In this document: piece after piece, positions 1-11,743 of the stretch
Numbering within the stretch: position 1 is the stretch's first letter
How the letters are laid out: each line of letters starts with the position of its first letter
Translations under genes and position numbers: made by a program
The notes under the pieces: generated by a model
What the model was told of the DNA's origin: nothing
Databases searched by the model: none
The model's input: only the letters and a program-made list of their open reading frames with translations
NCBI GenBank assembly: GCA_041660065.1
Contig: JBAZXC010000006.1
Location: forward strand, 4,984 to 68,983
From: Parcubacteria group bacterium
GTDB lineage: Bacteria > Patescibacteriota > Minisyncoccia > Moranbacterales > GCA-2747515
Direction of reading: 5' to 3'
DNA length: 64,000 nucleotides

Positions 1-230
1 TATTCCATTATTCCATCTTTTCTTTCTCGAAGAATTCCGAGTCCGATTTTGGAACAAATTTTCTCAAAGTTTTTTCTGTTTTGATTGGATTGGAATAACA
101 CGATATAAGGAGCAACCTGAAAACCATACCGATAGGTATCGTTTGGTTTCATCCTTACATAGATGCTTCCATCTCCATCAAGAAATCCTGCCAAATATGC
201 ACTAATTGTTGACGAAAAATTTTTACACAT
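1..230 (-). CDS. LAGLIDADG homing endonuclease, I-CreI family. Only the N-terminal part is in the window; the ORF runs off the window start.
   Basis: Minus-strand translation starting at ATG 230..228: MCKNFSSTISAYLAGFLDGDGSIYVRMKPNDTYRYGFQVAPYIVLFQSNQNRKNFEKICSKIGLGILRERKDG. The LAGFLDGDGSI motif sits at residues ~13-23 and the alignment to I-CreI (LYLAGFVDGDGSIIAQIKPNQSYKFKHQLSLTFQVTQKTQRR...) is close. There is an in-frame TAA immediately upstream of the ATG. Confidence 0.7.
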   Translation of the reverse strand, partial: MCKNFSSTISAYLAGFLDGDGSIYVRMKPNDTYRYGFQVAPYIVLFQSNQNRKNFEKICSKIGLGILRERKDGIME

Positions 231-462
231 AAACTTCCCTCGGTATTATCCTAACATGTGACAGGTTATGTCACAATAGGACTCCACCGATATAAGTCGA
301 TTTCTCATATATGATCGCTCATATACGCCGCCGTGTATGATGTCTTTTTCCTCGGGTTCAAACTGTACAAAAGTCAAAAGTTCATAATATTATAAAGTCC
401 ATAAAAAGTTTGGCATTCCAAAAATTTATAAACTTTAAAACTTTCTACTTTATAACTACTGT
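1..462 (-). mobile_element. Group I-type intron (partial, continues past window start) interrupting the 23S rRNA at the site homologous to E. coli 2593, which is also the I-CreI homing site
   Basis: In rRNA sense the sequence reads GAGCTGGGTTCAAACCGT up to the base at + position 463. It then departs from the universally conserved CGTGAGACAGTTCGGTCCC tract (ACAGTAGTTATAAAG...). The inserted stretch contains an I-CreI-like ORF. Exact splice junctions and the P1-P10 core are not resolved by eye. Confidence 0.6.
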
Positions 463-509
463 ACGGTTTGAACCCAGCTCGCGTACCACTTTAAACGGCG
501 AACAGCCGT

Positions 510-567
<58 letters not shown>

Positions 568-598
568 ACTCCGTCGATGTGAACTCTTGGGAGTGATA

Positions 599-629
<31 letters not shown>

Positions 630-789
630 ATGATCTTCCACACTCCTACAAGTGATGGTCGGTTCACTAACTTCTACTTTCGTAACTGAGCGACTTGCTT
701 GTCTTTCAGTAAAGCTGGTTTATGCGTTTGCACTATCGGCCCGATGTCCATCCGGACCTAACCAACCTTTGTAAACGCCTCCGTTACAT

Positions 790-821
<32 letters not shown>

Positions 822-1331
822 ACCAGGCACTGTTCCTGCACCGGTAGCTATATTCAACACGAGTAGTAAATTTAGTAGTACTTTTTAATCATCAGACGAG
901 TCTTATAAAATAAAATTTTATAAGCAGTTAGTGAATTCTTTTAAGTGAAAATTTTCCACGTCAAAGATCCCTCCGTACAAAACATTCTAAAAAACGCTTT
1001 GTTTTACGAAGGGCTTCACTACTCGCCTGTTGATCATATGTACCTTTGAATTTACACTCTGTAAAATACACCTAACGGTGCAAGGTTAGAATCAAAACTT
1101 CAGCAGGGTGGTATTCCACTGTTGACTCCACCGCTCCCTAAAGAGCAGCTTCAAAGTCTCCCACCTATTCTCGGCAACTAAAACTCTAATTCAATGCCAA
1201 GCTGTAGTAAAGCTCCACGGGGTCTTTTCGTCTAGCTGTAGGTAGGGGGCATCTTTACCCCCATTGCAATTTCACCGAGCACCTGGTTGAGACAGTTCCC
1301 ATCTCGTTACACCTTTCATGCGGGTCGGAAT

Positions 1332-1363
<32 letters not shown>

Positions 1364-2809
1364 GATTATAGTTATCGCCGACGTTCACTGGCGCTTCGGG
1401 GATCCGCGTAAACTTCTCCCGTTAACGTTCCAGCACTGGTCAGGTGTCACCCCCTATACATCCTCTTACGAGTTAGCAGAGAGTTGTGTTTTTGGTAAAC
1501 AGTCGAATGGGCACTTTAGCTTCGTCCAGCACCTATTTCAAAAATGATCGTCAAAATTTTTAACATTCATGAGCGATAGCGACTGCATCTTTTATCACTA
1601 TCAAATCTCTATGATCATCTCTAAAATAGGTGCTGGAAAGACATTTAGCGAACGTACGTCTAGCTTTTTTGCCGAGTTCCTTAACCAGGTCTCACTCATT
1701 CATCTTAGGCTACTCGCCCTATCTACCTGTGTCGGTTTACGGTACGGGTGTGTATATATTGAAGCTTAGAAGCTTTTCCTGGTACCCTGCTCACTACTAT
1801 TAATTCCTCCGAAGAGAAACGACTGTCCATATCTCGGATTATTGTATGGCGGATTTGCCTACCATACATCCTCAATACGTCCACATCAATCCAATAAGAT
1901 GCAGTAGCTACAAGAATACGTCACTCCATCGCATATATACACAGTGCAGGAATATTAACCTGCTGTCCATCGACTACGCCTTTCAGCCTCGCCTTAGGAC
2001 CGACTAACCCTGGGATGATTGCCATTGCCCAGGAAACCTTAGATTTTCGATGTGCACGGATCTCACGTGCATTGCGGTTACTCATTCCAGCATTCTCACT
2101 TCCTTGCGTTCCACCGGTGGTCACCCATCCGGCTTCGGCACACAAGGAACGCTCTCCTACCACTTGTAGATAAATCTACAAATCCGCATCTTCGGTATTA
2201 TACTTGAGCCCCGTTACATTTTCGGCGCAAGATCTCTAAACTAGTGAGCTATTACGCTTTCTTTAAAGGATGGCTGCTTCTAAGCCAACCTCCTAGGTGT
2301 CTGAGAAATCTCACTTCCTTTTCCACTGAGTATAAATTTTGGGACCTTAGATTGCGATCTGGGCTTTTTCCCTTTTGAACTACGAGCTTAGCCCCGTAGT
2401 TCTGACTGCCGCTGTACGATCATGAGCATTCGGAGTTTGGTTGAGCGCCCTACCTTGCGGCGGGAACTCATTCAGTAGCTCTACCTCCCATGATTAATTA
2501 AAGCGACGCTAGCCCTAAAGCTATTTCGGAGAGAACCAGCTATTGCCGAGCTCGATTGGAATTTCTCCTCTACGCACAAGTCATCCCCTGATGTTGCACA
2601 GTCAGTGGGTTCGGGCCTCCCACAACTTTTACATTGTGTTCACCCTGCTCATGCGTAGCTCGCCCGGTTTCGGGTCTAGTTCCTATGACATATTCGCCTG
2701 TTACAGCTCGCTTTCACTATGCATCGGTTACAGAGTAACTTATGCAAGCCATAGAAAACTAACTCGCTGGATCGTTCTACAAAAAGCACGCAGTCACCCC
2801 TCACCCAAA

Positions 2810-3070
2810 TTACTCTAAACTTTCTTTGACATGTTTTATCAATTGATATTTTGCCTTACCATTATGCTTCAAACGATATTCTCTCGTCCGTGCGGCACTG
2901 AGCGTTATCCACGACTCATAATAAACAATTTTCCAATGATGTGATTTTGTTGATCTGTTTTGACCACTGTTATGTGAATCAAAACGCTTTTTCAAATCAC
3001 TTGTACATCCGACGTAGAAAACTTCTCTATCATCAGTTGCTTGCAAAGCATAAACATAATGCATACGCAT
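2810..3070 (-). CDS. GIY-YIG domain protein, YhbQ/UPF0213-like, 86 aa, encoded inside the 23S helix-25 IVS
   Basis: MRMHYVYALQATDDREVFYVGCTSDLKKRFDSHNSGQNRSTKSHHWKIVYYESWITLSAARTREYRLKHNGKAKYQLIKH. GIY (YVYAL), YIG (FYVGCT) and R..EHN.G motifs are present, with a C-terminal REY..K block like YhbQ/YazA. Same strand as the rRNA. Confidence 0.65.
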   Translation of the reverse strand: MRMHYVYALQATDDREVFYVGCTSDLKKRFDSHNSGQNRSTKSHHWKIVYYESWITLSAARTREYRLKHNGKAKYQLIKHVKESLE

Positions 3071-3089
3071 ATATTTATACAGTTAAAAT
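2812..3089 (-). other. Intervening sequence (IVS) inserted in the loop of 23S helix 25 and closed by a 15-bp extended helix. Almost its whole length is an ORF.
   Basis: In rRNA sense ...GGAGCCCCTCACCCAAATT is the revcomp of 3090..3104. A 278-nt insert follows. AATTTGGGTGAGGGGTGACTGCGT (revcomp of 2797..2811 onward) then resumes the conserved GUGACUGCG of helix 25. The two arms are perfectly complementary. Too short for a group I intron; the position matches the classic RNase III-excised IVS site of Salmonella/Leptospira. Confidence 0.6.
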
Positions 3090-3159
3090 AATTTGGGTGA
3101 GGGGCTCCTACTCTTTGTTAGCGTATAGTTTCAGTTCTATTTCACCTCCCTCTACGGGA

Positions 3160-3201
<42 letters not shown>

Positions 3202-4110
3202 TGAGACAATATTTAGTCTTGGAAGTTAGTGCTCCCGGATTCAGACGGGGTTTCTCCGGCCCCGCCCTACTTGAGAATAAACTCACCTATTATTTTTTCT
3301 TTTCGTGTACAGGACTTTTACCTTTTATAGTCACACTTTCCAGAGTATTCCACTAAGAAAAAATTATTGGCCCCGCTCTAAGCGAGTCCGCTCATCTCGC
3401 AACCCCGTTCCTAATAAAAGAAACGGTTTAGACTGTTCCGCTTTCGCTCGCCACTACTGACGGAATCTCATATTGATTTATATTCCTCCTGGTACTAAGA
3501 TGTTTCAATTCCCAGGGTTTGCTTTCATAACCTATGAATTCAGTTATGAATTTCCACTTGCGTGGAAGGATTGCTCCATTCGGACATCTCCGGTTCACAG
3601 CTTGTTTGGTAGCTCCCCGAAGCTTTTCGCACCCAACTACGTCCTTCATCGCTCGTCTCAGCCAAGGCATCCACTATACGCCCTTTGTAACCTCTTTCTT
3701 TTATTTCATCAAAATCTATAAAGAATTGACAATTAAGAGAAACTTAACTGCAATTTTTATATCATTCAACAAAATTTAATGAGTGTATTGTTCATTTGAT
3801 CTTTTGGGTCAAATGAAATTGCTTAACCTATTTGTTGCTTTCTTCTGATATGACCACACATGTGTTCCGCAACAAATATGCGCGTCATTCAAAAATTTAT
3901 ATGCAGTTGTGAAAGTTCACACGTGCCTTGCCGTAGCTCACAAAAGCGACAGTAGGTTCTGCGGAAACAAGTAAATCTCTTTCACCATGTTTCCGCACAA
4001 CATTCTTTCATGTTTCAAACAAACAAAAAACGAGACATGTGCCTATATGTATTCTCGCTTGCGTCGCTCTTTCTCCGGCCGCACTTGACGTCCTCAGAGC
4101 AGTACTACCT

Positions 4111-4546: not shown

Positions 4547-5458
4547 TTATGAAACTGTTTTTATAGCGCGTATTTGGTCACACAAAATTTGCGACTTTTT
4601 GCCAGATGCCTCTGCATAATCATCACCAGAGCTGGCAAAAATAATATCGGAGCTTGAATTGATCGCGATCGATCCGGGACCGGCATAAGCCGCTTTTATC
4701 GTTTCTTCCACAAAACCGCCTTGCGTACCAACACCGGGAATCAGAAACCACAGACCACTGCCAACGATCTGCCGACATTTCGACAAATGTTCGGAAAAAA
4801 TTTCTCCAGAACCTTTGAAGGTTTCGTATGCAGCTGCCATGACAAGTCCGGCATTTTCATTCACGCCGATCTCCCATGCCCACCGCAAAATCGTTTTGGC
4901 AATGAATTCCCAATATTGTCGCCCATCAGCAAGCAATACATCCTGGACTTCCCGCGCCTCTGGATTACTTGTGTAACAAAGTCCCACAATCGCTCGTCCC
5001 GGATGTGCAGGATCAAATAACGGCTTCATACAACTGCTACCCATATACGGCGAGAAATTCATCCCATCTACGCCATCGATCTCAAAGTGCGCAATACGAT
5101 AACGTTCTTGTGTTCTACCGATATCACCTCGTTTACAATCCAGGAAAACCGGAATATCGGGATAGAATTTGTGAATATAGCTCACGATTTTTTGGAGAGC
5201 TTTATCACCACCGCGAAATGCCTCATAATGCGCCTTCTGCAGTTTGAACATTGATGCGAATGGAGCGGTTGAATCTACAATATCAATCATCCACTGCGCG
5301 ATCGCCTTCCAGTCAGACGAAATCCAAAACTTCTTTCTGAGACAATGCGGCAACTTTTCTGGTAACGGATCCAGACCAACACATACAAGAGAGTTTATCT
5401 CCAATTGTCTCCTTGCAAGTTTTGCTCGAAATCCTTCTTCTTTTGCGCTTTCCACCAT
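4547..5458 (-). CDS. pyrF: Orotidine-5'-phosphate decarboxylase, long (type 2) form
   Basis: VCVGLDP, FLDCKRGDIG and LIPGVGTQGG motifs; 303 aa. Confidence 0.8.
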   Translation of the reverse strand: MVESAKEEGFRAKLARRQLEINSLVCVGLDPLPEKLPHCLRKKFWISSDWKAIAQWMIDIVDSTAPFASMFKLQKAHYEAFRGGDKALQKIVSYIHKFYPDIPVFLDCKRGDIGRTQERYRIAHFEIDGVDGMNFSPYMGSSCMKPLFDPAHPGRAIVGLCYTSNPEAREVQDVLLADGRQYWEFIAKTILRWAWEIGVNENAGLVMAAAYETFKGSGEIFSEHLSKCRQIVGSGLWFLIPGVGTQGGFVEETIKAAYAGPGSIAINSSSDIIFASSGDDYAEASGKKSQILCDQIRAIKTVS

Positions 5459-11669: not shown

Positions 11670-11743
11670 GTTCTGGTAGCTCAATTGGATAGAGCGTCTG
11701 GTTTCGGCCCAGGAGGTTAGAGGTTCAAGTCCTCTCCAGAACA
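11670..11743 (+). tRNA. tRNA-Arg (anticodon UCG)
   Basis: Hand-folded cloverleaf: acceptor GTTCTGG/CCAGAAC (7 bp, perfect), D-stem GCTC/GAGC, anticodon stem TCTGG/CCAGG, loop TTTCGGC (U33, anticodon TCG), T-stem AGAGG/CCTCT with a TTCAAGT loop. Confidence 0.8.

Follow-up and report, generated by a model that had tools for sequence, protein, structure and literature searches.

The 64,000-nt stretch of DNA analysed here, referred to as the window, carries at its start, on the minus strand, the 5′ exon of an interrupted 23S rRNA gene and the first part of the insertion that interrupts it (Table 1). The rRNA exon ends in ...GGGUUCAAACCGU at window position 463, the equivalent of E. coli U2593. 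The conserved tract GAGCUGGGUUCAAACCGU can be read at 480-463, and beyond it only scattered bases can still be aligned to the 23S model; a scan restricted to window 1-860 yielded a clean 23S match at model positions 2230-2617, of which the last bases are CCGU. The bases past the break (ACAGUAGUUAUAAAG..., running from 462 to 1) have a G+C content of ~35%, versus ~50% in the flanking rRNA. E. coli numbering was obtained by alignment to an rrl copy of 2902 nt (L086), in which the break falls after index 2591; this index is U2593 in the standard numbering, because the GGG-UUU run G2581-U2586 sits at 2579-2584 in the copy used. The insertion is thus located directly 3′ of the U2593 equivalent, the position that marks the L2593 lineage, and the identical junction is found in 56 relatives. 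The original prediction, made from the letters of the DNA, had a 23S tract broken at E. coli 2593 by an AT-rich insert, and this is what the alignment places at window 463. It had assigned positions 1-467 to the intron, a range that includes four or five exon bases because the exon ends at 463; an intron is indeed present, and its extent in the window is 1-462.

Table 1. Features of the 23S rRNA exon and of the intron segment, in window coordinates
Feature	Position	Strand	Remarks
23S rRNA 5′ exon (E. coli 1-2593 equivalent)	463..3697	minus	Rfam RF02541, 2171 bits
Predicted group I intron at L2593, 5′ part	1..462	minus	cut by window start
P1 5′ strand, exon CCGU, U2593 = splice-site U	463..466	minus	pairs with GCGG 328-331
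L1 insertion, 127 nt, AT-rich	336..462	minus	variable among relatives; MFE fold
Internal guide: CACG 332-335 (P10, with 3′ exon CGUG) and GCGG 328-331 (P1)	328..335	minus	
P2 hairpin AUAUGA-GCGA-UCAUAU, GNRA loop	309..324	minus	6/6 pairs compensatory in family
P3 5′ strand AUCGAC	296..301	minus	partner GUCGAU beyond window; 4/6 pairs covary in relatives
P4-P5 domain	240..290	minus	all pairs complete in window sequence
P4, UCGGU with ACCGA	286-290 with 240-244	minus	100% paired in family
P5, UCCUA with UAGGA	277-281 with 249-253	minus	92% paired in family
P5 extension hairpin	257-275	minus	
P6 5′ strand GGGAAGUU	232..239	minus	P6 99.5% paired in family
I-CreI-like LAGLIDADG ORF, first 76 codons	1..230	minus	ATG 228-230; in P6 loop

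Rfam model RF02541 calls the 23S gene at 401-3697 as model positions 1-2925, 'not cut off'. This span is a local-alignment artefact: the true match stops at model position ~2617, the last ~310 nt of the 23S rRNA are absent, and window positions 401-462 are intron forced into the local alignment. An automatic annotation would put the 3′ end of the 23S gene in the wrong place, and the intron accounts both for the truncated-looking rRNA annotation of the contig and for an Rfam 'full-length' 23S that is devoid of its last ~310 bases. In the 64-kb window Rfam detects no further 23S match and neither a 16S nor a 5S rRNA gene, and there is no 16S gene ahead of the 23S; the sole tRNA of the 64 kb lies at 11670-11743. 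The relatives have a 5S gene downstream of the 23S gene.

The 23S exon of the window has no insertion at 1917-1951, and two other insertions were found in it. The first, 295 nt long and AT-rich (2803-3097, minus strand), follows ~E. coli 546 in helix 25, where intervening sequences (IVSs) are known to occur; it folds into a single closed structure whose terminal stem measures ~25 bp (z = -9.7) and is probably an IVS of the RNase III type or an expansion segment. The second, of 227 nt (846-1072, minus strand), sits at the tip of a hairpin, close to E. coli 2212, and forms one long hairpin (z = -9.3). At the latter site the related loci L001, L008, L009, L010 and L014 carry an insertion of unrelated sequence, and L016 and L002 carry none.

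Complete relatives and their group I fold

The element in the window belongs to a family of insertions that can be followed across both splice sites in other contigs. A protein search with the 76 residues encoded in the window returned 52 relatives with 58-88% identity. One of them, L001, is a 30-kb contig that holds the whole element: the 23S rRNA up to ...AACCGU, an insertion of 704 nt, CGUGAGACAGG..., the rest of the 23S rRNA and the 5S gene. A scan of one genome per species identified 93 loci that encode a relative of the ORF, and the best 80 of the 93 are almost all labelled Patescibacteria or CPR (Moranbacteria, Parcubacteria and others), at 61-93% identity. An insertion of 668-824 nt between ...AACCGU/ and G/CGUGAGACAG is carried by 56 of 85 loci, and these 56 stem almost entirely from Patescibacteria (CPR) genomes; nearly all 56 have an intact ORF of ~150 aa, the ORF of L041 being only 33 codons long, and the intron-terminal G precedes CGUGAGACAG in every one of the 56. 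The 462 nt of intron in the window are ~80% identical to the first part of the L001 insertion, and the complete relatives continue for ~240-360 nt more with the rest of the ORF, P6′, P7, P3′, P8, P7′, P9 and the terminal G. In L006, L007, L011-L013, L018, L019 and many others the contig begins or ends within ~30-160 nt of the 5′ splice site, so that assemblies often break shortly before the intron, within the 23S exon.

The group I assignment of the window segment is based on its homology to this family of complete introns, which have a group I fold. The fold was derived by hand and tested on an alignment (A3) of 37 ORF-deleted constructs. Its 52 pairs in 10 helices leave 96.3% of the alignment cells paired, versus 33-46% in controls with the 3′ partners shifted by 1-3 columns; changes on both sides of the pair occur in 21 of the 52, and the observed covariation score was reached by none of 500 shuffles. 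Compensatory pairs include four of the five in P8 and five of the six in P9, while P1 and P7 never vary. All 37 sequences have the same P1 pairs, CG, CG, GC and UG, with the U.G pair at the splice site, and P3 covaries between versions such as AUCAAC/GUUGAU and ACCGAC/GUCGGU. P6 is formed by GGG-AA-GUY with RAC-CCC, its closing pair being U-A in 22 sequences and C-G in 14; the RAC-CCC partner is found where the ORF ends, immediately ahead of the stop codon, such that the whole ORF is contained in the P6 loop and P6′ and J6/7 double as its last codons (...L T P stop). P10 joins CACG, directly 5′ of the P1 guide, to CGUG of the 3′ exon, and is 95% paired across the family. P8 is a variable hairpin, P9 is a hairpin with a GNRA loop followed by the terminal G, and P3 and P7 cross to form a pseudoknot, as in every group I intron.

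The guanosine-binding site of group I introns is formed by the conserved J6/7-P7 (AGAGACUA) and J8/7-P7′ (AAGAUAUAGUCC). The relatives read GUAGAGACU in J6/7 and P7, and (A/G)(A/U)G(A/G)UAUAGUCC in J8/7 and P7′, and their 3′ cores align to the consensus AGACUAAAcG...gAAGAUAUAGUC...P9 of the Rfam group I model RF00028. On the complete relatives this model scores 22-32 bits (E 1e-6 to 0.04), which is short of the 50 bits that Rfam requires, since the model is split by the ORF. In the window it gives no match even at E up to 10, and nothing attains the 50-bit gathering threshold, because the conserved 3′ core lies beyond the window edge.

Two candidate pairings were rejected while the fold was being derived. 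A long helix of GGGUUCAAAC-CGU with ACAGUUUGAACCC would, as P1, put the splice-site U in a U-A pair, and five minimal relatives do not have it; GGCGGC, which is invariant, was taken as the P1 guide because the canonical U.G pair results. The sequence GACUAUA in J3/4 was considered as the 5′ strand of P7, for which GAGACU beside P3′ fits the standard topology and the Rfam consensus.

The part of the core that is visible in the window conforms to this fold. The window retains the family-invariant guide GGCGGC, has every pair of P2, P4 and P5 formed, and agrees with the consensus at each base of the P3 and P6 5′ strands. A covariance model (R1) that extends from the guide to the P6 5′ strand, built from 29 distant relatives with the window and its subfamily left out, aligns from end to end with window 336-232 (minus strand) at 104 bits (E 5e-26); the only other match in the 64 kb, of 16.8 bits, is to the opposite strand of the same 336-232 stretch. 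The group I identity put forward in the original prediction is thus supported by the R1 match, the similarity to L001, the covarying fold of the relatives and the alignment of their 3′ cores to the RF00028 consensus.

The endonuclease ORF and the host lineage

The ORF in the P6 loop is open from position 230 to the window start, its translation reading MCKNFSSTISAYLAGFLDGDGSIYVRMKPNDTYRYGFQVAPYIVLFQSNQNRKNFEKICSKIGLGILRERKDGIME. The motif LAGFLDGDGSI occupies residues 13-23, where it had been predicted, and the acidic residue D20 lies within LAGFLDGDG. Pfam LAGLIDADG_1 (PF00961) recognizes the 76 residues with 37.5 bits against a cut-off of 23.1 (E 4.7e-9), and the profile search that had been proposed as a check on the ORF is thereby passed. 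Residues 5-71 align without gaps to residues 5-71 of I-CreI (E ~1e-11), and therefore G19, D20, Q47, R68 and R70 keep their I-CreI numbering. A second stretch, KPN..Y.....L.F.V.Q, had been described as matching I-CreI residue for residue; K28, P29, N30, Y33, Q38 and Q47 are identical, whereas the L, F and V positions are merely hydrophobic in both proteins. The best matches among solved structures are I-CreI, I-MsoI and I-CvuI (PDB), and identity to I-CreI amounts to ~38-40% by a hand count on the alignment. The proteins of the relatives are 148-154 aa long, have a single motif and are co-linear with I-CreI 5-143; the closest full-length relative, that of L008 (148 aa), aligns to I-CreI 5-143 with E 1.6e-22. 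Judged from its sequence, the ORF encodes an I-CreI-type single-motif LAGLIDADG_1 protein.

The 23S rRNA of the window is 83-88% identical to that of L001, L008 (a 'Moranbacteria' genome), L009, L010 and L014, and the same loci, L001, L008, L009, L010 and L014, harbour the closest introns. This agreement between the relatives of the host 23S and those of the intron is compatible with vertical inheritance inside a CPR lineage and speaks against the assembly being a chimera. It also upholds the CPR placement that had been proposed, since the nearest introns and the nearest 23S genes come from Patescibacteria genomes, with 'Moranbacteria' closest. An exact match to 48 nt of the ORF was found neither in genome_contigs nor in metagenome_contigs, and a search with the neighbouring OMP decarboxylase gene (4547-5458) matched only a 3.5-kb Logan contig that stops short of the intron.

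Taken together, positions 1-462 of the minus strand very probably hold the 5′ portion of a mobile group I intron located directly 3′ of U2593 in the 23S rRNA gene of a member of the Patescibacteria (CPR), a reading to which we assign a probability of roughly 0.93. The copy might instead be decayed or truncated, in which case splicing would not restore the 23S rRNA or the endonuclease would be dead. Only 462 nt of the element are visible, many related contigs end in it or beside it, and decay does occur in close relatives: in L001, two single-nucleotide insertions early in the ORF (3323-3400) have separated the ATG from the reading frame of the LAGLIDADG motif, and the 33-codon ORF of L041 points in the same direction. 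In the window, however, the visible core (GGCGGC, P2, P3 5′, P4, P5, P6 5′) matches the consensus with its pairs intact, 76 of 76 visible codons are open up to the edge, where the ORF runs off the window as had been foreseen, the catalytic motif is present, and a second 23S match is absent from the 64 kb. We consider decay or truncation of this copy to be very unlikely.

Proposed splicing and homing, and the loop of P1

The sequence that separates the 5′ splice site from the guide contains an additional complement to the exon. At the 3′ end of the L1 insertion, the stretch 353-363 (GUUUGAACCCG) is complementary to exon positions 466-476, just upstream of P1; the longest helix between exon and L1 is 11 bp, versus ~7 in shuffled sequences. 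The exon complement is 11 bp long in the window's subfamily and 5-8 bp in most other members, and it is absent from five minimal introns, in which the loop of P1 measures ~6 nt. It also tracks an A/G polymorphism of the exon, CAAAC/GUUUG versus CAGAC/GUCUG, and because the complement follows the polymorphism it appears to be selected. We infer that it serves as an extension of exon binding.

The same helix bears on another explanation, according to which the insertion is an IVS that RNase III cuts, or that is left in place, giving a fragmented or interrupted rRNA with no splicing. There are precedents in the IVSs of helix 25 and helix 45 and in the unspliced Simkania intron, the two other insertions in the window's 23S fold as long closed stems typical of IVSs, and an exon-L1 helix of at least 11 bp is readable as a processing stem. 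However, a covarying group I core, an invariant U.G pair, a terminal G and P10 play no part in RNase III processing, and helix 93 of the peptidyl-transferase centre is expected to need exact religation (PMC3315327, PMC11270868). An origin of this kind is, in our judgement, extremely improbable.

As a self-splicing group I element, the intron would be removed in two steps. The exon sequence CCGU would pair with the guide GCGG as P1, with the U.G pair at the splice site, and 11 more exon bases would pair with their complement in the P1 loop. The attack after U2593 would then come from a free guanosine bound in P7; subsequently the intron-terminal G would replace the guanosine, P10 (CACG with CGUG) would hold the 3′ exon, and the exons would be joined. 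The ligated junction would read AACCGU-CGUGAG, and ligation would restore helix 93 (2588-2606) of the peptidyl-transferase centre (PMC3315327). In homing, the P6-loop ORF product of ~150 residues, a predicted homodimer by analogy with I-CreI, would cut the intron-less 2593 site, a nearly palindromic target of ~22 bp (TCAAACCGTCGTGAGACAGGTTGG), leaving 4-nt 3′ overhangs around GTGA; the cut allele would then receive a copy of the intron during repair. The continuation to the left of the window is expected to comprise an ORF that ends ...LTP-UAG inside AACCCCGUAGAGACU, followed by ACGUCGAU; the 3′ boundary of this copy should read G/CGUGAGACAGGUUGG, with the last ~310 nt of the 23S rRNA behind it.

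The window's subfamily differs from the bulk of the family in a second region. Most distant relatives, such as L015-L018, carry two hairpins of the subgroup IA type between P7 and P3′ (P7.1/P7.2), whereas none of the nine closest relatives, which include L001, L006-L009, L011, L013 and L014, has them; in the window's subfamily GAGACUACACGUCG runs directly from P7 to P3′. We tentatively propose, while regarding the case as somewhat doubtful, a distinct L2593 subfamily that has lost P7.1/P7.2 and in which an 11-13-base stretch of the P1 loop pairs with the 5′ exon as a possible 'exon clamp'. If this were true, the clamp would retain the exon, or prevent the formation of helix 93 prior to splicing, and would offset the lost peripheral elements. 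A description of such an exon complement in the P1 loop of 2593 introns was not found in the literature consulted.

A further group I 3′ core, GAAGATATAGTC, was noticed in L001, L008 and L014 just ahead of the exon at ~E. coli 1931, which is ~780-840 nt upstream of the 2593 site of these loci. In L018, positions 1495-1666, downstream of its 2593 intron, give a sub-threshold match to RF00028.

Relation to known L2593 introns

Insertions in CPR rRNA genes were reportedly first noted by Brown et al. in 2015. A survey of CPR 23S genes has documented LAGLIDADG_1 ORFs in insertions at 1917, 1931, 1952, 2593, 2604 and 2657 (PMC11270868), and sites 23IS6-23IS14, a range that includes 2593, have been classed as group I intron positions (Tsurumaki 2024, J Bacteriol, PMC11270868). 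The CPR 2593 insertions reported there share with the window's copy the host group at phylum level, the site and the ORF family. The survey classified insertions by Rfam only and gave the 2593 elements without structure, and the enzyme tested biochemically, I-ShaI, belongs to another site, 23IS7 (PMC11270868). The window's copy is a further CPR member of the 2593 group that is identical to no retrieved sequence, and a hand-checked secondary structure backed by covariation is now given for the CPR L2593 family.

Outside the CPR, L2593 introns have been described in the cyanobacteria Synechococcus sp. C9, S. lividus C1 and Thermosynechococcus elongatus (Haugen 2007, PMC1995217). They occupy the same site, measure 744-748 nt compared with 668-824 nt in the relatives of the window's intron, and encode a single-motif LAGLIDADG ORF of 159-189 aa (PMC1995217). 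Short P5 and P2 elements are common to the cyanobacterial and CPR L2593 introns. The P7.1/P7.2 hairpins of the cyanobacterial introns (PMC1995217) are likewise present in most CPR relatives but absent from the window's subfamily, which in contrast to the cyanobacterial introns has a long P1-loop insertion with the 11-bp exon complement.

The 2593 site is also that of the enzymes I-CreI and I-MsoI (PMC3315327), in accordance with the original prediction as far as I-CreI is concerned. For I-CpaI, which had been named alongside it, no support was found. The I-CpaI site presumably lies near position 1931. The Cr.LSU intron of the Chlamydomonas reinhardtii chloroplast, which encodes I-CreI, is inserted after 2593 (PMC3315327), and its ORF is co-linear with that of the window. 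The introns of I-MsoI and I-CvuI reside at the same site as the window's copy. As in the window, the Cr.LSU ORF is located in the P6 loop; the host of the window's intron, unlike that of Cr.LSU, is a bacterium.

The window's element is another member of an already described group of group I introns. Its novelty is low, because LAGLIDADG_1 ORFs at CPR 2593 have been catalogued and L2593 introns are known in cyanobacteria and chloroplasts; the I-CreI family moreover counts among the best-studied enzymes, which leaves little weight for discovery. Natural I-CreI-like enzymes with a slightly shifted target may nevertheless be of some use in meganuclease engineering. The predicted target of the window's enzyme reads CAAACCGU...ACAGGUUG and that of the algal enzyme, as we take it to be, CAAAACGU...ACAGUUUG, the two presumably differing at two symmetric positions.
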